DNA of 64,000 nt from a virus, in the UHGV virus genome UHGV-0170778; one strand, given 5' to 3'. The notes under the pieces are model-generated. The model was not told where the DNA came from and searched no databases. It saw nothing but the letters and a program-made list of their open reading frames with translations. Below, in pieces: positions 5,826 through 57,395 of this stretch (positions are counted from its first letter, which is position 1; the number at the start of each line of letters is the position of its first letter). The position numbers and the translations under genes were made by a program.

Positions 5826-6692
5826 ATGGATACAAATGTTGACTATGAGAATCTGAAAGAAATTACAGTAAACACACAAGAAGAATTAAACAGAATACCG
5901 CTTGATTTCAAAGGAAGAATTTATGTAGAGTTTGGTACTTATGATAATCCAGCTATTGTTGAGAATGAGTATAGTTTAAGGGTTGTTGCTAGAAAAGGTT
6001 CATGTATAGAAGCTAGAAAAGACGCATATGTTGAGGCTGAAGATAAATCAATGGTTATTGCTCGAGAGGAGTCCAATGCAGTTGCGAATGATAATTCAAG
6101 CATTGAGGCTCGAGATAATTCAAAAGTTTATGCATATAATACTTCAAGAATTGTTGCTTGGGGTCGTTCAAGAGTTTTCTCTGAGGATGATGCAATCATT
6201 GAAGCTCGAGAGCATTCGACAGTTAAAGCTTGGAAGAGGTCAATCATCGCTGCATATGATAGGTCAACCGTCATTGCTTACAATAAGTCTAGTGTTGTTG
6301 CTTGGGGTAAGTCAAAAGTTCATTCTGAGAATAGATGCAGCGTTGAGACTCATGATCAGTCAAAGGTGACTGCGTTAGGGTATTCAAAAGTTGAGGCATA
6401 TGATCAGTCAACTGTTCAAGCTTATCAACAGTCAGACGTTGTGTCCTATGATAATTCAGTTGTTGTTGCTAAAGAGTCAGCAATCGTTAATTCTTATGAT
6501 AATTCAATCGTTGTTGCTAATGGGCATTCAAGCGTAGAGGCTGAAGGAAAATCATTAGTTACTGCTCATAACAATTCTAGCGTTGTTGCTCGTGACAATT
6601 CAGACGTTACGGCTATGGATGATTCAACTGTTGAGTCCTATGATAATTCAACTGTTGAGCTTCGCGATAATGCACAGCTGGTCAATGCGTAA
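5826..6692 (+). CDS. octapeptide-repeat protein (about 28 tandem 8-aa repeats, consensus S-x-V-x-A-x-[DN]-x)
   Basis: 288 aa. From about aa 55 the protein is an uninterrupted array such as SRIVAWGR SRVFSEDD AIIEAREH STVKAWKR SIIAAYDR STVIAYNK ... First gene after cassette copy 1. Confidence 0.6.
   Translation: MDTNVDYENLKEITVNTQEELNRIPLDFKGRIYVEFGTYDNPAIVENEYSLRVVARKGSCIEARKDAYVEAEDKSMVIAREESNAVANDNSSIEARDNSKVYAYNTSRIVAWGRSRVFSEDDAIIEAREHSTVKAWKRSIIAAYDRSTVIAYNKSSVVAWGKSKVHSENRCSVETHDQSKVTALGYSKVEAYDQSTVQAYQQSDVVSYDNSVVVAKESAIVNSYDNSIVVANGHSSVEAEGKSLVTAHNNSSVVARDNSDVTAMDDSTVESYDNSTVELRDNAQLVNA
5990..6692 (+). repeat. degenerate 24-bp tandem repeat array (coding)
   Basis: DNA-level periodicity underlying the octapeptide repeats. 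Also generates a spurious periodic ORF in another frame (6028..6369). Confidence 0.6.
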
Positions 6693-6740: not shown

Positions 6741-6773
6741 GCAGCAAGAAATTGATCTTGCTGCTATTTTTAT
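6741..6773 (+). terminator. rho-independent terminator (cassette copy 2)
   Basis: Same 9-bp stem gcagcaaga/tcttgctgc, loop aattga, then tatttttat. Confidence 0.6.
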
Positions 6774-6804
6774 GTCCAAAATATTAAAAAACTATTAAGA
6801 ACAC

Positions 6805-6833
6805 TTGAATTTATATCAATATTTCGTTATAAT
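6805..6833 (+). promoter_or_regulatory. sigma-A-type promoter (cassette copy 2)
   Basis: TTGAAT - 17 bp - TATAAT. Flanks are near-identical to copy 3. Confidence 0.6.
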
Positions 6834-6867: not shown

Positions 6868-7062
6868 ATGTCTACTCTAAAAGAATTATATAAAACAGAG
6901 AAGGGTTTCGACAAAGGTGCAACTCTTTCAGTTTATGAATACTCAGACGGAAGTATACATTATACTTTTCGTGATAGACTTGGAAAACCTTCTAATGTAG
7001 ATGGTCACAATGAAGCAGAATTTCTGATTGAAACTTTTAATATGCAGAAACAGAATGCATGA
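6868..7062 (+). CDS. hypothetical small early protein
   Basis: 64 aa, GGAGGT RBS, first gene after cassette copy 2. Confidence 0.45.
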   Translation: MSTLKELYKTEKGFDKGATLSVYEYSDGSIHYTFRDRLGKPSNVDGHNEAEFLIETFNMQKQNA

Positions 7063-7295
7063 AGATTGATTTTTGGAAAGGAGAAAGCACAATGCCAAGA
7101 GTATTGACAGTGGACGGTAGTGTAAAAATCGGAGCATACAGTTTTCCTGATAGGAAAAAGCCCTGTATATGTGTCGAGAAAGGAAACGCTTGTGTTGTGT
7201 ACGGCTCTTTCATTGATATTGACCGTGCAAAAGAATTTATGGATGAACTCGCAGCTCTTGTGGGTGCGAGGAATGATAAGGAGGACGAAGAATGA
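7059..7295 (+). CDS. hypothetical small protein
   Basis: 78 aa, ATGA overlap, GGAGAAAG RBS. Confidence 0.45.
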   Translation: MKIDFWKGESTMPRVLTVDGSVKIGAYSFPDRKKPCICVEKGNACVVYGSFIDIDRAKEFMDELAALVGARNDKEDEE

Positions 7296-7462
7296 CAAAC
7301 TACGAGCGAATAAAAAATATGAGCATTGATGAAATGGCGAACGCCATAAAAAAAGGCCATTTCGGAGACCCGTGTGAGCATTGTTCTTTAAGAAACGAAC
7401 CATGTGCATTCTTATGTGTTAAGGGTATTTTAATGTGGCTTAATAGTGGGTTGAAGGAATGA
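7292..7462 (+). CDS. small Cys-containing protein, tandem paralogue of 7459..7650
   Basis: 56-aa ORF below the track cutoff: MTNYERIKNMSIDEMANAIKKGHFGDPCEHCSLRNEPCAFLC... It shares MTN[YF]ERIKNMS[IV]DEMA with the next gene. ATGA overlaps on both sides. Confidence 0.45.
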   Translation: MTNYERIKNMSIDEMANAIKKGHFGDPCEHCSLRNEPCAFLCVKGILMWLNSGLKE

Positions 7463-7650
7463 CGAATTTTGAGCGAATCAAAAATATGAGTGTTGATGAA
7501 ATGGCATCCGAGATTGATAGAATTTCTCATTATTTATGTGATGATTACGGAGGTTACGGATGTAAAGAATGTCCATTTAATTTTTTAGAAAATCGAAATT
7601 GTAATGCAACAGAATTTGCAAACTGGCTCAATAGTGAGGTAAAAGAATGA
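7459..7650 (+). CDS. small Cys-containing protein (paralogue of 7292..7462)
   Basis: 63 aa, MTNFERIKNMSVDEMASEI..., CDDYGGYGCKECPF. Confidence 0.5.
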   Translation: MTNFERIKNMSVDEMASEIDRISHYLCDDYGGYGCKECPFNFLENRNCNATEFANWLNSEVKE

Positions 7651-8018
7651 TAAATAAAACAATGTATGAAAAAGAAAAAGAAATTACTGACAAAATAGAT
7701 GCAAAAGAAGCAATAAAAATGTTTCAAAATCTTATATTTGCAGAAAATCATAGAATTGCAGAAAACCATTGTAGAAAACTTGCAATAAAAGCCCTTGAAA
7801 AGCAAACACCACAAAAGCCTATCAAAGAAACGGTAAATCGTGGTATATCAGCATCGGGCGAATATGACATTGATTTTAATTATCTTTGTCCAAATTGCAC
7901 GACTGTTGTTGGTGACTATGAAACCAATGATTTTTTTATAAATTTTGCCCCGAGTGTGGTCAAGCATTGGATTGGGGTAAGAGGCCTATTAATTATGAAA
8001 TTTATTTTCAAAATCTAA
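7647..8018 (+). CDS. hypothetical protein carrying the first half of a Cys4 zinc ribbon (CPNC)
   Basis: 123 aa. CPNCTTVVGDYETNDFF lies immediately before a T7 run at about 7931-7937. Confidence 0.45.
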   Translation: MINKTMYEKEKEITDKIDAKEAIKMFQNLIFAENHRIAENHCRKLAIKALEKQTPQKPIKETVNRGISASGEYDIDFNYLCPNCTTVVGDYETNDFFINFAPSVVKHWIGVRGLLIMKFIFKI

Positions 8019-8197
8019 CCGCTCTAATGAACAGGTATAACGACGATAATGAAAATTGCATTACATGCAAAGATTGTCTAAATTACGGGCCTTGTGCAGC
8101 CCCATTTAAGTGTGACGATAATACTAGCGTGTATTTCTGTGATGAATTTGTAAACAAAAATTGCAGTGATATTGAGTTAAAGGAGAAAACAAAATGA
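7967..8197 (+). CDS. hypothetical Cys-rich protein; its frame is open from 7931 and begins with the second zinc-ribbon half (CPEC)
   Basis: Track ORF starts at a TTG. The same frame upstream reads FFYKFCPECGQALDWGKRP... with a TGA immediately before the T7 run. Contains CITCKDCLNYGPC. Likely expressed by a -1 shift from 7647..8018, or the two ORFs are split by a homopolymer error. Confidence 0.4.
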   Translation: MDWGKRPINYEIYFQNLTALMNRYNDDNENCITCKDCLNYGPCAAPFKCDDNTSVYFCDEFVNKNCSDIELKEKTK

Positions 8198-8415
8198 GTA
8201 ATCTCACGCTTAACAACGGCTGGATTAGTGTAAATGACAGACTACCGGACACAAGTAGATATGTGATTGCGTGTTCCGATTTACAAGACGTATTCGAATG
8301 TTGGTATCGCACCATAGACAAATGTTGGGTAAGACACGGCCATATAGTTGTTGAAAACATTACGCATTGGCGAGAACTACCTGACCCGCCGATAATGGAG
8401 GAGAGCAAAGAATGA
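8194..8415 (+). CDS. DUF551-like small phage protein
   Basis: NGWISVNDRLPDTSRYVIAC matches the W-I-S-V-x-D-x-LP signature of DUF551. Paralogue at 8774..9046. Confidence 0.5.
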   Translation: MSNLTLNNGWISVNDRLPDTSRYVIACSDLQDVFECWYRTIDKCWVRHGHIVVENITHWRELPDPPIMEESKE

Positions 8416-8522
8416 CTTGTAAAGATTGTCCACATTTTGATGTGTGCAAAATGTATGGTGCATTCCATACAAAGACACGCTGGAAATCATCGGCAACATC
8501 CACGATAATCCCGAATTGTTGA
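8412..8522 (+). CDS. very small CxxC protein (MTCKDCPHFDVCKMY...)
   Basis: 36-aa ORF with ATGA overlap. It shares its N-terminal motif with the 10226..10627 product. Confidence 0.3.
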   Translation: MTCKDCPHFDVCKMYGAFHTKTRWKSSATSTIIPNC

Positions 8523-8773
8523 AAGGAATAAAAAATGTTTAACTATAAAAAAGCCATACAGAGATATAGAGTTGCTAAAATTTTTGGATTACCTTTTAAG
8601 TTACGCATTAAAGTGTTTTTCAGGGGCAAAGGAACTCCAAAAGAAAATTTTGAAAAAAAGATAATTAATCATAAAAAAGGAGAGCAGGAATGACAGATGA
8701 AGATGAAATCAATATTGACATCGATTGCTTATAAGCAATGCTTATATATGCAAAACTGGAAAGGAGTAGAAGA

Positions 8774-9046
8774 ATGAACTTAAATTTTGCTGACATTATT
8801 AAAGACACAAAACTTATTAACCGTTTCTTAAAATGCCACGATGACAGCATTTTAACAGATAACGGTTGGATTAGTGTAAACGACAAACTTCCAAATAACG
8901 ATGAAGACGTAATTGCGCTGTCTGATTCTGGAGATTCACTTGTCTGTCGATATAATAATGATATGAAGCGTTGGGAAAAGTACGGTTTTACATTAGATAT
9001 GAATTTTATTTATTGGAGAGAACTGTACAAATACAGAAAGGATTAA
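8774..9046 (+). CDS. DUF551-like small phage protein (paralogue of 8194..8415)
   Basis: Start moved to the ATG preceded by AAGGAG. NGWISVNDKLPNNDEDVIALSD. Confidence 0.5.
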   Translation: MNLNFADIIKDTKLINRFLKCHDDSILTDNGWISVNDKLPNNDEDVIALSDSGDSLVCRYNNDMKRWEKYGFTLDMNFIYWRELYKYRKD

Positions 9047-9050
9047 GTCA

Positions 9051-9425
9051 ATGACCAACAAAGAAAGAAAACAGACCGGTCTGTTGCATTCAGCAGATGA
9101 ACTGAAACGGCTCATTTTAGAACACCAAGAGTTGCCGATTTTGGTACTTGCCGGAGATAATGCGAACACTGGCGACTATGGCTTTATGAGTTGTAGCCGT
9201 GTACGCGCACAAGAAGGCGAGTTTCTTGATTGTAAGCAGAAAATCGACGCATGCAAGTGCTACACAGATAGGGATGACTTTGAAGACGATGTGGCAGATT
9301 TTTTGGCTGGTGAAGAACAGTATAGAGATTTGCCGGACGATGAATTTAATGCCCTCGTTGAGCAAACAGTCAATGAGTACGATGATTTTTGGAAGCCATG
9401 CATTCTATTGCATGTAGACAATTGA
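9051..9425 (+). CDS. hypothetical acidic protein
   Basis: 124-aa ORF. Confidence 0.45.
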   Translation: MTNKERKQTGLLHSADELKRLILEHQELPILVLAGDNANTGDYGFMSCSRVRAQEGEFLDCKQKIDACKCYTDRDDFEDDVADFLAGEEQYRDLPDDEFNALVEQTVNEYDDFWKPCILLHVDN

Positions 9426-10229: not shown

Positions 10230-10627
10230 CTTGCAAAGATTGTTACCACTATGGTGTATGCAAATTTTATAATAAGAATTTACCAGAAGAATATGACCAT
10301 ATTGAGTGGCAATGCGACAGTTTCAAGGACAAATCATGCATTGTTGAATTGCCCTGTAAGGCTGGGGAAACAGTATATTGTCTTGATGACATTGTAGATA
10401 ATGAATTATGTGCTGACTGTGAACACTATTATGAGGGTGGTATGGGTGATTATCCGAGTTGTCAAAAAACTCGTTATGGTTTTAGACCTGCAAAATGTAT
10501 CGAAATTATCGAGATAGTCGCAGATAATGATTTCGTGTTGAAATATTACAACGAGTTTGGTGAAAAAATATTTCTCACCAAAGAGGAAGCAGAAGCAAAA
10601 CTGAAGGAGTTGAACGGAAATGAATAA
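10226..10627 (+). CDS. Cys-rich protein (MTCKDCYHYGVCKFY ... CADCEHYYEG)
   Basis: 133 aa, ATGA overlap. Confidence 0.5.
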   Translation: MTCKDCYHYGVCKFYNKNLPEEYDHIEWQCDSFKDKSCIVELPCKAGETVYCLDDIVDNELCADCEHYYEGGMGDYPSCQKTRYGFRPAKCIEIIEIVADNDFVLKYYNEFGEKIFLTKEEAEAKLKELNGNE

Positions 10628-11438: not shown

Positions 11439-13091
11439 TTATTTTACATATGCATAAACAGCTTGACCACAATCATAAACAGGTAACCATCCGTGATCAA
11501 TCATCAATTCTTCATTTGAGGTTCCTTTTCCGTAATCTGTGTTGAAAAGTTGATCGTATCCTCGTTGACGTAAGAGATTTGCAGTTATTTTATTATTCTC
11601 CAACGACCATATTTCTTGAGGAGGTGTATTCTTAACAAAATGCATACCTAATTTGCTATAAACAGATCCGTCAAATTTAGATAAATCACAATAGGAAATT
11701 ATATTGTTCAGATGATAATGAGAGACGGCGTATTTGAAGAGTTTTGAAGCCCCGCCAGTAATTTTATATCTACTGTTTGAGCAAAGTCGAAGAAGTTCAT
11801 ATTGATAGTTTCTATTATATCTAGAATTACCAAAAGTCATCACTTCAACAAGTTCTCCTTTATACATCAATCCTACTCGAATATTCTGTCCTTTACATGT
11901 ATTCTGGATATGATACTTACATAAGAATTCGTCGCATTCTTTCTTACCTATCTCTACAATTTTGCAGTTACGGGCATATATAACTTCTTTCTTTGTCAAT
12001 AGCTGGATGACTTTGTCCCAGTTATCCCAATCAAAGATATGAATACATCTGAATCCGTTTTCTTTAGCAATATTAGTCTTCTCTAAATGGTAACCTTTAT
12101 CTACAGTAACATTCCAATGGTTTCCAACAATGTTGTGAGTATAAGTAGGATCAATTTCTATTAGAATGTTAGTGTCAAGTATGTGTAAGTCGTAAAATTT
12201 TCCACTTAGATAAAATTCTAACTCTCCGTTTTCATTTGCTGCTTTTACAGCATCTAAAAATTTCAAATTTGTTTTAGATATCCTGTTTTTTCTGCACTGA
12301 GCGTCATTTGTCAAGCAGCCATAAGGAACTCCGTATTTCTTCATACATGTTTCTTGTATTTTCATTTGAATTGTTTCAGATTTTGAAGGGTTATCTACTC
12401 CTAAGTGTTCGATCCAAGTCTGCTTTGCTTTTTCGTCTATTTCGTCAGGCCAAAAAGACCCATAGTTCGCTATTCTATGTTCCATAGCTATTTTATTTAT
12501 TGATTCCACCTGCATTGGATTTTCTTTTCCATATCGTTCCATCATTGTTTGTTTTGCTTTTTCTGTAAATTGATCTATTTTAGATGGATTAGCTTTGCCA
12601 TACTTTGCCTCCATAGTTGCTTTGTATTTATCATATAACTGTTTACTCTGTAAAGTAGTAGGAGCACCGTATCGTTCAGTCATAGTTTTCATTGATTTTT
12701 TCTTTATTTCTGGATCGCTCAATGCCCAGTCAACACCAAATTTCTTCTGGTTAGATGCTTTTGCTTTTTCATAAAATTGATCTGATTGCAAAGCAAATTC
12801 AACACCATACTTATCTTTCATAGATTTTCTGTGATGAGCTTGAACTTCTTTGTTTTGCATAGGATGATCTACACCATATTTTTCTCTACATCTCATCTTT
12901 CGTAATTGAGCTTTACATTCTTTGGAACACGGAGGAGGCTGTTGTCTTGAATTCCATATCATTTGTTTACCACAAACAGGGCAAGGAACATAATGATCGT
13001 CATTACATATTTTAGTAGAACTTCTTTCTGGCATAAATATTTTGCCACATATAACACATTTCTTCGGACTCTTTGGAACACCTTTAGGCAT
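11439..13091 (-). CDS. homing-endonuclease-like protein, paralogue A
   Basis: The only substantial minus-strand gene. Architecture: zinc ribbon (CVICGKIF ... CPVCGK), about 9 tandem approximately 33-aa [KR]YG[VA]xxPxQ repeats, PD-(D/E)xK core (ILIEIDPTYTHN ... YHLEKT ... GFRCIHIFDWDNWD), and a conserved C-terminal domain. Start moved to MPKG. Confidence 0.65.
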   Translation of the reverse strand: MPKGVPKSPKKCVICGKIFMPERSSTKICNDDHYVPCPVCGKQMIWNSRQQPPPCSKECKAQLRKMRCREKYGVDHPMQNKEVQAHHRKSMKDKYGVEFALQSDQFYEKAKASNQKKFGVDWALSDPEIKKKSMKTMTERYGAPTTLQSKQLYDKYKATMEAKYGKANPSKIDQFTEKAKQTMMERYGKENPMQVESINKIAMEHRIANYGSFWPDEIDEKAKQTWIEHLGVDNPSKSETIQMKIQETCMKKYGVPYGCLTNDAQCRKNRISKTNLKFLDAVKAANENGELEFYLSGKFYDLHILDTNILIEIDPTYTHNIVGNHWNVTVDKGYHLEKTNIAKENGFRCIHIFDWDNWDKVIQLLTKKEVIYARNCKIVEIGKKECDEFLCKYHIQNTCKGQNIRVGLMYKGELVEVMTFGNSRYNRNYQYELLRLCSNSRYKITGGASKLFKYAVSHYHLNNIISYCDLSKFDGSVYSKLGMHFVKNTPPQEIWSLENNKITANLLRQRGYDQLFNTDYGKGTSNEELMIDHGWLPVYDCGQAVYAYVK

Positions 13092-13139
13092 ATAATAAAT
13101 CTCACTTTCAATATTATTATTAAATATAAGGTACATATA

Positions 13140-13848: not shown

Positions 13849-15408
13849 ATGATCAAAAAATGTAAGATATGCGGAAAAGAGTTTGAAGCATATGGTACTT
13901 CTGAATATTGCCCAGGCCCTCACTATAAAAAATGTGCTGTTTGTGGTAAAGAGTTTGAATGGGATAGATTGCATCCTAAGAAATGTTGTTCGAGGAAATG
14001 TGCAGCAGCTCTTCGACTTTCTACTATATCATCAGAAACAAGAATATGCGAACTTTGTGGGAAAGAATTTCATCCTAATAATAGTACGCAAAAATACTGT
14101 AAAGATGATCATTACAGACCTTGTCCTGTGTGTGGGAAACCAATTAAAATAACTGAAGACACAAGCATTACTTCTTGTTGTTCTGTTGAATGTAGTAATG
14201 AGCTTAGAAAGAGGACATGTATTGATAAATATGGAGTTCCTATTGTATCTCAGAATGACGAAATACGACAGAAATTGAGTCAAGCTTCAATAGAATCAGA
14301 AAATAAGAGAAAAGAAACATGTATCAAACGATATGGAGTTGAATTCGCTTCTAAATATTCTGAGGTTAGAAGAAAAATATCGAATACAGTTAAAAGCAAA
14401 GAATGTCAAAGTAGAATTAGAAATACGACACAACACAAGTATGGAGTTCCGTTCGTAATGCAATGCGAAGAAGGATTATCTAGATATAGAAAAACAATAG
14501 AATCTAAATATGGAGTTCCATATTTTTGTATGACAGATAAATGCAAAGACTCGCAAGGGAAAGTAATTTCGACTCTAAATAAAAGTTTTGGAAACTTATT
14601 GAGTCAAAATAACATACCATATACATTTGAATACAAGATAGAGAATAGATCGTATGATATTTGCGTCCCTGGATCAAAAACACTGATCGAAATTGATCCT
14701 ACATATACTCATAATGTTATTGGAAATTGTTGGGGACCTGGCTTAGAGATCAATTATCATATAGAGAAGACAAAATTAGCAAATGAATATGGATTCAGGT
14801 GTATTCATATTTGGGATTGGGATGATTGGGATAAGATAATAAATATCATCAGGCCAAAATCCGTCATATATGCTAGAAAATGTAAAATAAGTGTGATTGA
14901 TCGAAAAACAGCAGAATCTTTTGAAATTGATAATCATTTACAAGGCGCTGTAAAAGGACAATCTATTTGCTTAGGTCTATTTTATTGCAATGATCTAGTA
15001 CAGGTCATGACTTTCGGTAAACCTAGGTACAATAAAAACTACGATTGGGAACTGCTTAGACTCTGTTCCATTTCTGATTATGCAGTTGTAGGCGGAGCAG
15101 AGAAGCTATGGAAATATTTCATAAGTAGACATGTATCAGATTCAGTTATTTCTTATTGTGATTTGTCTAAATTCAAAGGAGATGTTTACACGAGATTAGG
15201 TATGTCCTTAGACTTTGTAAACGAACCCAATAAAATATGGTCTAAGAAATCTGAAATGATAACCAATAACTTACTCCTTCAACGAGGGTACGATCAATTA
15301 TTCAATACAAATTATGGAAAGGGGACCTCAAACGAAGAATTGATGCTGGAACACGGATGGTTGCCGGTTTATGATTGTGGTCAAGCAAGATATACATGGA
15401 GTAATTGA
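13849..15408 (+). CDS. homing-endonuclease-like protein, paralogue B
   Basis: Two tandem approximately 60-aa Cys zinc-ribbon modules (CKICGKEF..CAVCGKEF..CCSRKC, CELCGKEF..CPVCGK..CCSVEC), 4 KYGV repeats, LIEIDPTYTHN...YHIEKTKLANEYGFRCIHIWDWDDWD, and C-terminal IYARKCKI...NHLQG...VVGGAEKL. Confidence 0.65.
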   Translation: MIKKCKICGKEFEAYGTSEYCPGPHYKKCAVCGKEFEWDRLHPKKCCSRKCAAALRLSTISSETRICELCGKEFHPNNSTQKYCKDDHYRPCPVCGKPIKITEDTSITSCCSVECSNELRKRTCIDKYGVPIVSQNDEIRQKLSQASIESENKRKETCIKRYGVEFASKYSEVRRKISNTVKSKECQSRIRNTTQHKYGVPFVMQCEEGLSRYRKTIESKYGVPYFCMTDKCKDSQGKVISTLNKSFGNLLSQNNIPYTFEYKIENRSYDICVPGSKTLIEIDPTYTHNVIGNCWGPGLEINYHIEKTKLANEYGFRCIHIWDWDDWDKIINIIRPKSVIYARKCKISVIDRKTAESFEIDNHLQGAVKGQSICLGLFYCNDLVQVMTFGKPRYNKNYDWELLRLCSISDYAVVGGAEKLWKYFISRHVSDSVISYCDLSKFKGDVYTRLGMSLDFVNEPNKIWSKKSEMITNNLLLQRGYDQLFNTNYGKGTSNEELMLEHGWLPVYDCGQARYTWSN

Positions 15409-15929: not shown

Positions 15930-15942
15930 TTAAAATCAAAAC

Positions 15943-15975
15943 GCAGCAAGATCAAATTCTTGCTGCTATTTTTAT
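15943..15975 (+). terminator. rho-independent terminator (cassette copy 3)
   Basis: Stem gcagcaaga/tcttgctgc, then tatttttat. Confidence 0.6.
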
Positions 15976-16006
15976 GTCCAAAATATTAAAAAACTATTAA
16001 GAACAC

Positions 16007-16035
16007 TTGAATTTATATCAATATTTCGTTATAAT
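16007..16035 (+). promoter_or_regulatory. sigma-A-type promoter (cassette copy 3)
   Basis: TTGAAT - 17 bp - TATAAT. About 90 bp near-identical to copy 2. Confidence 0.6.
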
Positions 16036-16115
16036 ATATGTGTAATAAAAGATAAATAGATGTAATGAGGTGTCACAAAGAACTACAAACCTACCAATAC
16101 AGAAAGGTGTTTATT

Positions 16116-57280: not shown

Positions 57281-57309
57281 TAGCTCGCTCATATGCGGGC
57301 TATTTTTAT
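57281..57309 (+). terminator. rho-independent terminator (cassette copy 5)
   Basis: tagctcgc-tcatat-gcgggcta (8 bp with one G.U), then tttttat. Confidence 0.5.
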
Positions 57310-57340
57310 ACTAAAAATATTAAGAAACTATTAAGAAGAC

Positions 57341-57369
57341 TTGAAATTATATCAATATTTCGTTATAAT
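57341..57369 (+). promoter_or_regulatory. sigma-A-type promoter (cassette copy 5)
   Basis: TTGAAA - 17 bp - TATAAT within ctaaaaatattaagaaactattaagaagacttgaaattatatcaatatttcgttataatatatg. Confidence 0.55.
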
Positions 57370-57395
57370 ATATGTAAATAAAGGAGGAATAATAA

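Follow-up and report, generated by a model that had tools for sequence, protein, structure and literature searches.

A small early zinc-ribbon gene of a myovirus-like phage split by a one-base homopolymer frameshift: very recent mutation or sequencing miscall rather than programmed recoding

Genome context and anatomy of the locus

The gene considered here belongs to the early region of a myovirus-like phage of roughly 119 kb and specifies a protein of 183 aa. It was studied in a 64-kb window, by which the whole stretch of phage DNA that was analysed is meant; the features of this window include a tail sheath, two HNH homing endonucleases and a helicase. The neighbouring genes are likewise small, of early or accessory type and coupled to one another in translation, and the run that they form with it lies 3' of a terminator-promoter cassette. 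The consensus TTGAAT-17 nt-TATAAT promoter found at 6805-6833 suggests that the run is transcribed by the host RNA polymerase.

Two ORFs are found at 7647-8197, on the + strand, as are the other parts of the locus. ORF1 (7647..8018) encodes 123 aa and ends in ...CPNCTTVVGDYETNDFF-INFAPSVVKHWIGVRGLLIMKFIFKI*, and a second ORF is listed at 7967..8197. A GAGG Shine-Dalgarno sequence is present 5' of the ATG of ORF1 at 7647, and this ATG overlaps the stop codon of the preceding gene as ATGA. As judged from its translation, the part 7647..7937 forms the 5' segment of a single gene (frame 0, codons 1-97) and contains an N-terminal helical region, a conserved EKQ-P-K-P linker and the first cysteine knuckle, C81-P-N-C84. 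It is followed by the 3' segment of the same gene at 7937..8197, recognized from its translation and from homologues, which is read in the -1 frame (codons 98-183 and the stop) and encodes the second knuckle, C101-P-E-C104, followed by a linker and by the Cys-rich domain at the C-terminus. The remaining part of ORF1, at 7938..8018, is an out-of-frame tail of 26 codons and a stop (INFAPSVVKHWIGVRGLLIMKFIFKI*) and is not conserved as coding sequence.

The frame breaks at a homopolymer. The run TTTTTTT was confirmed at 7931..7937, where relatives have T8, and a -1-frame TGA lies directly 5' of it at 7928..7930. Since this TGA closes the -1 frame on the upstream side, the frame change must fall at or after 7931. 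From there the -1 frame is open as far as the TGA at 8195-8197, over 88 sense codons, and reads FFYKFCPECGQALDWGKRP...; stop-to-stop spans of at least 88 codons make up 73 of the 4440 on the + strand, where the median span is 6, and an open -1 frame of this length at this place is no chance event. The 0-frame codons at the site are GAT TTT TTT ATA, which brings T TTT TTT into X XXY YYZ phase. The 183-aa product results if the frame shifts by -1 or if an eighth T is present, and in it C81-P-N-C84 and C101-P-E-C104 are separated by 16 residues; the predicted trans-frame peptide of the fused product is ...YETNDFFYKFCPECGQALDWGK, and the junction k-mer of the T7 allele is AATGATTTTTTTATAAATTTTGCCCCGAG. 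Re-reading of the sequence thus confirmed what the sequence-only reading had described, namely a T7 run with a -1-frame TGA just 5' of it, at which a shift fuses CPNC-x16-CPEC. Runs of A or T with lengths of 4, 5, 6, 7 and 8 occur 668, 209, 67, 4 and 0 times in the 64-kb window; the T7 at 7931-7937 is among the four runs of at least seven, and there are none of at least eight.

The listed start of the second ORF, a TTG at 7967, is merely the first start codon found mechanically, and no Shine-Dalgarno sequence was found 5' of it or of the in-frame ATG at 8027. The -1-frame stop overlaps the ATG of the next gene as ATGA, and the same arrangement is seen in the intact relatives L115-L118. This next gene (8194..8415) encodes a DUF551 protein (PF04448) and has its own AAGGAG Shine-Dalgarno sequence; its position after the intact gene is synteny shared by L115-L118.

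Two ORFs, one gene

Used as a query, the fused protein gave 81 relatives. It had been proposed from the sequence that both ORFs are a single gene with a zinc ribbon across the junction, and this is borne out by homologues that carry both CxxC knuckles in a single ORF: the invariant knuckles flank the T-run, one on each side, and every homologue outside the T7 contigs is a single ORF. In an alignment of 25 homologues, the sole invariant residues were E51, K52, Q53, C81, C84, C101, C104 and G105, so that all four cysteines of the CPNC-x16-CPEC arrangement, that of a Cys4 zinc ribbon, are invariant in the 25 sequences. The junction NDFF-YKFCPECGQ (hyphen at the frame break) occurs verbatim in P0001, P0083-P0085 (P0084 included), P0087, P0090-P0093, P0095, P0024, P0025 and P0097, and in the 90% cluster, of which 14 members are listed, 13 are intact.

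Both segments are matched by such proteins. The 5' segment shares 84-91% identity with the single-ORF homologues P0001-P0004, and the translation of the -1 frame agrees with the intact homologue P0006 at 65 of 81 positions (80%), with all cysteines kept. The 3' segment agrees in every residue with the last 100+ residues of P0097, an intact ORF, and the Cys-rich C-terminal domain is fused to the zinc ribbon in the single ORFs P0005, P0006, P0008, P0010, P0012 and P0037. Substitutions relative to L115 fall at codon positions 1, 2 and 3 in the numbers 13, 7 and 15, too weak a distribution to strengthen what the proteins show. On the evidence of the relatives' sequences, it is proven that the two ORFs are one gene.

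The possibility of two separate genes, one for a one-knuckle protein and the other for an independently translated Cys-rich protein, was weighed against these results and has next to no chance of being correct. An ORF of 56 aa starting at ATG 8027 was called by one annotation pipeline (P0096), and P0011, from L114, consists of the C-terminal domain and the second knuckle only, behind an unrelated N-terminus. Against this, the break sits within the invariant Cys4 unit; TTG 7967 and ATG 8027 are without a Shine-Dalgarno sequence, and clear ones are seen at the neighbouring genes; the stretch 8019-8193 was left uncalled by gene callers in L004-L006; and L118 has this very sequence as a single ORF. 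The two-gene reading is effectively refuted by L118 and P0097. P0011 was also considered as a second frameshifted homologue and was rejected, being an N-terminal replacement that has no first knuckle.

With regard to the protein itself, three parts can be told apart in the fused form: N-terminal helices, the Cys4 zinc ribbon and the Cys-rich C-terminal domain. Residues 20-112 match positions 7-103 of the 109 in the profile phrog_10714 (E = 5.4e-11), a match which straddles the frame break. Neither Pfam nor NCBIfam gave anything above cut-off for the fused protein; Pfam zinc-ribbon models reached E = 0.015-0.5, below their cut-offs, and a profile search against the PDB gave weak zinc-finger and zinc-ribbon matches (E = 0.05-0.2). 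The AlphaFold2 model of the fused protein, built with 25 sequences, had a mean pLDDT of 54.6, with about 55-78 in the ribbon and values below 50 in the C-terminal domain; at such low values the model is too weak to confirm the Cys4 geometry, and Foldseek found no match in the PDB at E <= 0.001.

The closest known proteins are phrog_10714 and other small zinc-ribbon proteins from the early regions of Firmicutes-type phages; the EKQxPxKP linker and the invariant Cys4 are common to the fused protein and its 81 database relatives. Modularity is high in this family: at least three N-terminal modules and two variants of the ribbon occur, the C-terminal domain may be present or absent, and rearrangements happen readily, as in P0011, P0062, P0074 and P0087. 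No intact ORF was found with the three-module combination of the window, the nearest intact form, P0097, having another N-terminal module. The exact 183-aa fused protein was absent from a collection of 15 billion proteins, and a blastn search with 7000-9000 gave no match among annotated phages.

The T-run in relatives and the question of recoding

The length of the T-run was compared among related loci. T8 is present at the site (GATTTTTTTTATAAA) in seven of them, all from other studies, namely L001-L003, which are about 90.5% identical to the window, L007 (from IMG/VR), L059, L066 and L118. The last of these is a Logan contig from a separate study (SRR12795793) and carries the intact 162-aa ORF P0097, whose N-terminal module is a different one but whose sequence from CPNCTTVVG onwards, up to the last residue, is that of the predicted fused product. 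At the DNA level, 7857-8698 of the window and L118 are identical over 842 nt except for T7 versus T8. Other homologues, such as P0002-P0004, have D-A/V-F-Y at the site, and a long T run is impossible where the residues are D-A-F-Y or D-V-F-Y. The junction pattern was also scanned with T6-T10 in IMG/VR, JGI metagenomes and GTDB genomes, followed by a tblastn filter; most hits were chance matches, and the only true homologues were L007, L059 and L066, all with T8.

T7 is restricted to the window and to L004, L005, L006 and L119, which are near-identical assemblies from one ENA ERZ series. L004 (ERZ1307801 NODE_54, 118,880 bp, coverage 7.9) is 100% identical to the window and probably the assembly from which it derives, and T7 is likewise found in L005 (ERZ1310706, coverage 2.4), L006 (ERZ1307796, coverage 2.8) and L119 (ERZ1310710, coverage 2.3). 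The lesion is thereby placed in the T-run and amounts to one base, with T8 as the ancestral or intact state; T7 is not conserved. The sequence-only reading had left room for an error in the length of the T-run or a recent indel, and the T8 of the relatives, one of them otherwise identical over 842 nt, supports that part of it. The comparison of orthologues that it had called for gave a single ORF with T8, which points away from recoding. The split is an ordinary one-base homopolymer frameshift and not programmed recoding; either a mutation arose very recently or the sequence was miscalled.

Programmed -1 frameshifting is well known in bacteria and phages, examples being the A AAA AAG site of dnaX and the G/GT tail-assembly chaperone of tailed phages. 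The present site resembles these in its X XXY YYZ heptamer in the correct phase, in a hairpin that follows at a distance of 5 nt and in a -1 frame that leads into a conserved domain. It is unlike them in that the shift site and both products are not conserved, the relatives are single-frame and the hairpin is incidental, and also in that the locus is a small accessory early gene. T7 was therefore weighed as a programmed -1 ribosomal frameshift or transcriptional slippage site, which would set a fixed ratio of the 123-aa and 183-aa products. The hairpin beginning 5 nt past the T-run has a predicted energy of -16.5 kcal/mol, E. coli RNA polymerase slips detectably on T-runs of seven but not on shorter ones, and the gene cluster lies 3' of a consensus sigma-70-type promoter, suggesting use of the host enzyme. 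This explanation is nevertheless highly unlikely, as the frame break is seen in one near-identical lineage only and the relatives have either an in-frame T8 or no run at all (D-A/V-F-Y).

The hairpin is predicted at 7943..7982 in the RNA, with 11 bp that include three G-U pairs, and the 60-nt fold containing it (-16.5 kcal/mol, z = -1.66) was equalled in 12 of 200 shuffles. It is missing in L001, L007, L114 and L115, and it is unchanged in the in-frame T8 allele L118; as the two sequences do not differ here, an allele that needs no frameshift has it as well. Its position coincides with an approximate mosaic junction at 7950..7959, where similarity to two gene types meets: similarity of the P0001 type ends at 7959, and that of the P0006 type (zinc ribbon and Cys-rich domain) begins at 7950. 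Identity to L001 is 90.5% over 7457-7959, and identity to L115-L117 is 85% over 7950-8249. The predicted hairpin arises from this mosaic junction of two gene types and is probably incidental.

Further evidence against recoding comes from the products and from the heptamer itself. Neither the 81 relatives nor the cluster members contain a counterpart of the 26-aa 0-frame tail, save P0082, the window's own product. In E. coli, U_UUU_UUU is far less shift-prone than A_AAA_AAG (PMC5009743). The sole Shine-Dalgarno-like element, GGTGA at 7909-7913, lies 17 nt upstream, encodes a conserved VGD and is common to the T8 alleles. Of the hallmarks of a frameshift site, the in-phase slippery heptamer is present; a conserved stimulatory structure, a two-frame layout in diverged homologues and a conserved non-shifted product were not found. 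As for transcriptional slippage, a run of seven is below the usual length of at least nine, and the out-of-frame state is not conserved. A programmed -1 frameshift with an additional short in-frame product, as had been proposed, is thus not supported, T7 being confined to one lineage, the tail being without a homologue and the hairpin being non-significant.

Contraction, miscall or switch

The most probable history is a real and very recent contraction. In this account, the tract GAT TTT TTT TAT, which encodes Phe-Phe-(Tyr), would have lost one base in this lineage, giving T7, with replication slippage at the homopolymer as the most likely cause; the contraction would have to be very recent, since an allele with 842 identical flanking nucleotides still has T8. 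The lesion would then lie in the phage DNA rather than in the reads. Standard decoding of the T7 allele would give the 123-aa product, with the first CxxC knuckle only and a 26-residue nonsense tail, and the second knuckle and C-terminal domain would have no translation start of their own, leaving the gene, we infer, mostly inactivated in the T7 lineage. Full-length protein may be restored to a few percent at most, in a non-programmed way, either through a U added by slippage of RNA polymerase on T7 or through spontaneous -1 slippage of the ribosome on U UUU UUU. For E. coli RNA polymerase, the reported rescue of a -1 reporter through insertion is about 5% with a T7 run and about 10% with T8 (PMC6260861). 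By analogy, a non-programmed leak to full-length protein is plausible if the T7 allele is real, and nothing suggests selection for such a leak.

The other explanation with appreciable weight is an artefact, in which the 183-aa gene of the phage would be intact, with T8, and one T would have been missed in the data of one study, by a flow-based or otherwise homopolymer-error-prone platform or by slippage during amplification; together, these routes are regarded as possible but rather unlikely. T7 occurs solely in one ERZ series, and other studies all have T8, including the allele identical over 842 nt. A T8 would be the only 8-mer of the window and hence its most undercall-prone site. In addition, L005 and L006, with k-mer coverages of 2.4-2.8x, show three singleton homopolymer indels in about 9 kb (relative to the window, A5/A6 at 7123, A7/A6 at 7348 and G4/G3 at 10364), each of which disrupts a gene whose frame is unbroken in the window. 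Singleton substitutions are absent from these two contigs, the only substitutions being two that are common to both, and this pattern of indels is the signature of homopolymer-error-prone data. The discrepancy at the T-run is limited to one data set, and that set holds other discrepancies in homopolymer length.

Several observations stand against a miscall. T7 was called in all four separate assemblies (ERZ1307801, ERZ1310706, ERZ1307796 and ERZ1310710), and the calls for the other three 7-mers were concordant in eight of nine cases, which makes four random miscalls in the same direction unlikely. The 64-kb window, at about 7.9x, is without another long gene broken at a homopolymer; when it was scanned for homopolymer changes of +/-1 nt, only ordinary gene boundaries (e.g. 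59944, 18830) were found beyond this gene. Real homopolymer indels are also known within this gene family: the L007/L059 lineage has A7 where L001 has A9 in the same gene, which forces the use of an alternative start (P0083), and the P0083 form is present on 10 contigs from JGI, Logan and ENA. It was concluded that such indels are genuine and recur naturally in the family.

A special case of a real allele is a reversible contingency tract, with ON (T8) and OFF (T7) forms in phage populations. T7 and T8 are seen on an otherwise identical background of 842 nt, a second homopolymer in the same gene varies by lineage (A9 versus A7), and the T8 tract is kept in several lineages. Phase variation is nonetheless very unlikely, as there is a single OFF lineage among dozens of homologues, T8 is the simple outcome of GAT TTT TTT TAT in a genome of 34% GC, and the run is replaced (DAFY, DVFY) in many relatives without consequence; the evidence amounts to one T7/T8 pair on an identical background and one OFF lineage. 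Slightly more doubtful still is a combined switch in a gut myovirus, in which T8/T7 slippage and U insertion by the host RNA polymerase would tune the dose of the early zinc-ribbon protein and the adventitious hairpin would boost -1 decoding. If this were true, the combined switch would be a phage contingency locus.

A homopolymer frameshift of this kind is an ordinary phenomenon. Frameshift alleles in homopolymer tracts with compensatory slippage include the G7 indels in the thymidine kinase of herpesviruses (reviewed in PMC5009743) and tssM of Citrobacter rodentium, reported to be rescued by transcriptional frameshifting (PMC4256274). The T7 allele is like those alleles in that a one-base homopolymer change splits the ORF and in that the tract is slippery enough for low-level restoration of the frame. 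It is unlike them in that the runs usually exploited are longer, in that it is possibly an artefact, and in that there is no sign of selection for the broken state.

For annotation, the stretch 7647-8197 should be entered as a single gene with a frameshift or possibly a miscall, and neither as two genes nor as a recoding site. The locus also illustrates that an accidental in-phase heptamer with a well-spaced hairpin can come from a one-base homopolymer change; hence, conservation of the shifted state, and not the anatomy of the motif, is the test that counts. If the T7 is real, it would represent a natural knock-down of an early zinc-ribbon protein and would suggest that the gene is dispensable for the phage.

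Homopolymer tracts and indels

In the window as a whole, A/T runs of four, five, six and seven nucleotides numbered 668, 209, 67 and 4, respectively, and none of eight was found; the number thus falls sharply with length. All four 7-mers (4875, 7348, 7931 and 8653) lie inside the 4.8-8.7 kb interval, the one at 7931 being the run that splits the zinc-ribbon gene (7647-8197, + strand). A/T runs of eight and nine nucleotides are present in the related 6-10 kb loci of other studies. The abrupt drop in the window may be caused by selection or by the platform.

When ERZ1310706 and ERZ1307796, two near-identical, low-coverage sister assemblies, were compared with the window, singleton one-base homopolymer indels were found at 7123 (A5/A6), 7348 (A7/A6) and 10364 (G4/G3). 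Every one of these singletons disrupts a gene whose window copy is intact, which suggests that the data of this ERZ series are prone to homopolymer errors.

Another homopolymer change was observed near the 5' end of the zinc-ribbon gene in other relatives. Two homologous loci, L007 (IMG/VR; 8655-8700) and L059, which correspond to window 7647-7690, carry A7 where the locus of another relative (L001) has A9. This is a loss of 2 nt, after which the original frame runs into a stop; the gene of this lineage is called from an alternative ATG, giving the protein P0083 (MKKKKITDK...). The P0083 form occurs on 10 contigs from three sources, which indicates that the A7 is a real homopolymer indel within the zinc-ribbon gene.

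Surrounding genes and the repeated cassette

A conserved cassette of ~115 nt is present in three copies in the window (6741-6833, 15937-16054 and 57299-57382), the first of them immediately before the cluster of small genes to which the zinc-ribbon gene belongs. Its parts are, in order, a G+C-rich hairpin and TATTTTTAT, which together look like an intrinsic terminator, and a sigma-70-type consensus promoter (TTGAAT-17 nt-TATAAT, 6805-6833 in the first copy). Directly upstream of the zinc-ribbon gene lie two small Cys-rich genes with ATGA overlaps (7292-7462 and 7459-7650), which are tandem paralogues (MTNYERIKNMSIDEMA... and MTNFERIKNMSVDEMA...).

Further upstream, nearly the whole of the 288-aa ORF at 5826-6692 is a degenerate ~10-residue repeat (..S.V.A....), suggesting a beta-helix-type repeat protein. 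Two paralogous HNH homing-endonuclease genes (phrog_3339) are located on opposite strands ~700 nt apart, at 11439-13136 (-, E = 1.6e-87) and 13849-15408 (+, E = 9.6e-71).

Gene fusion and fission downstream

Between the DUF551 gene (8194..8415, +) and the next called gene, two short overlapping ORFs are found at 8412-8542, one beginning MTCKDCPHFDVCKMYG... and the other terminating ...EIIGNIHDNPELLKG, an end that resembles the C-terminus of YopX-family proteins. They are probably leftovers of decayed or recombined genes.

Window regions 8738-9046 and 9051-9425 were compared with L118 (a Logan contig, 1219-1788) and with the protein P0074. In these relatives, the homologue of ORF 9051-9425 (MTN.ERKQTGLLHSADELK...) is fused, in the same frame, to a segment upstream of it that contains a zinc ribbon, whereas the window counterpart is unfused: a stop (TAA, 9044-9046) precedes the ORF, which has an ATG of its own. 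From this comparison of sequences, it is concluded that the fusion and fission of genes are common events in the region around 8738-9425.
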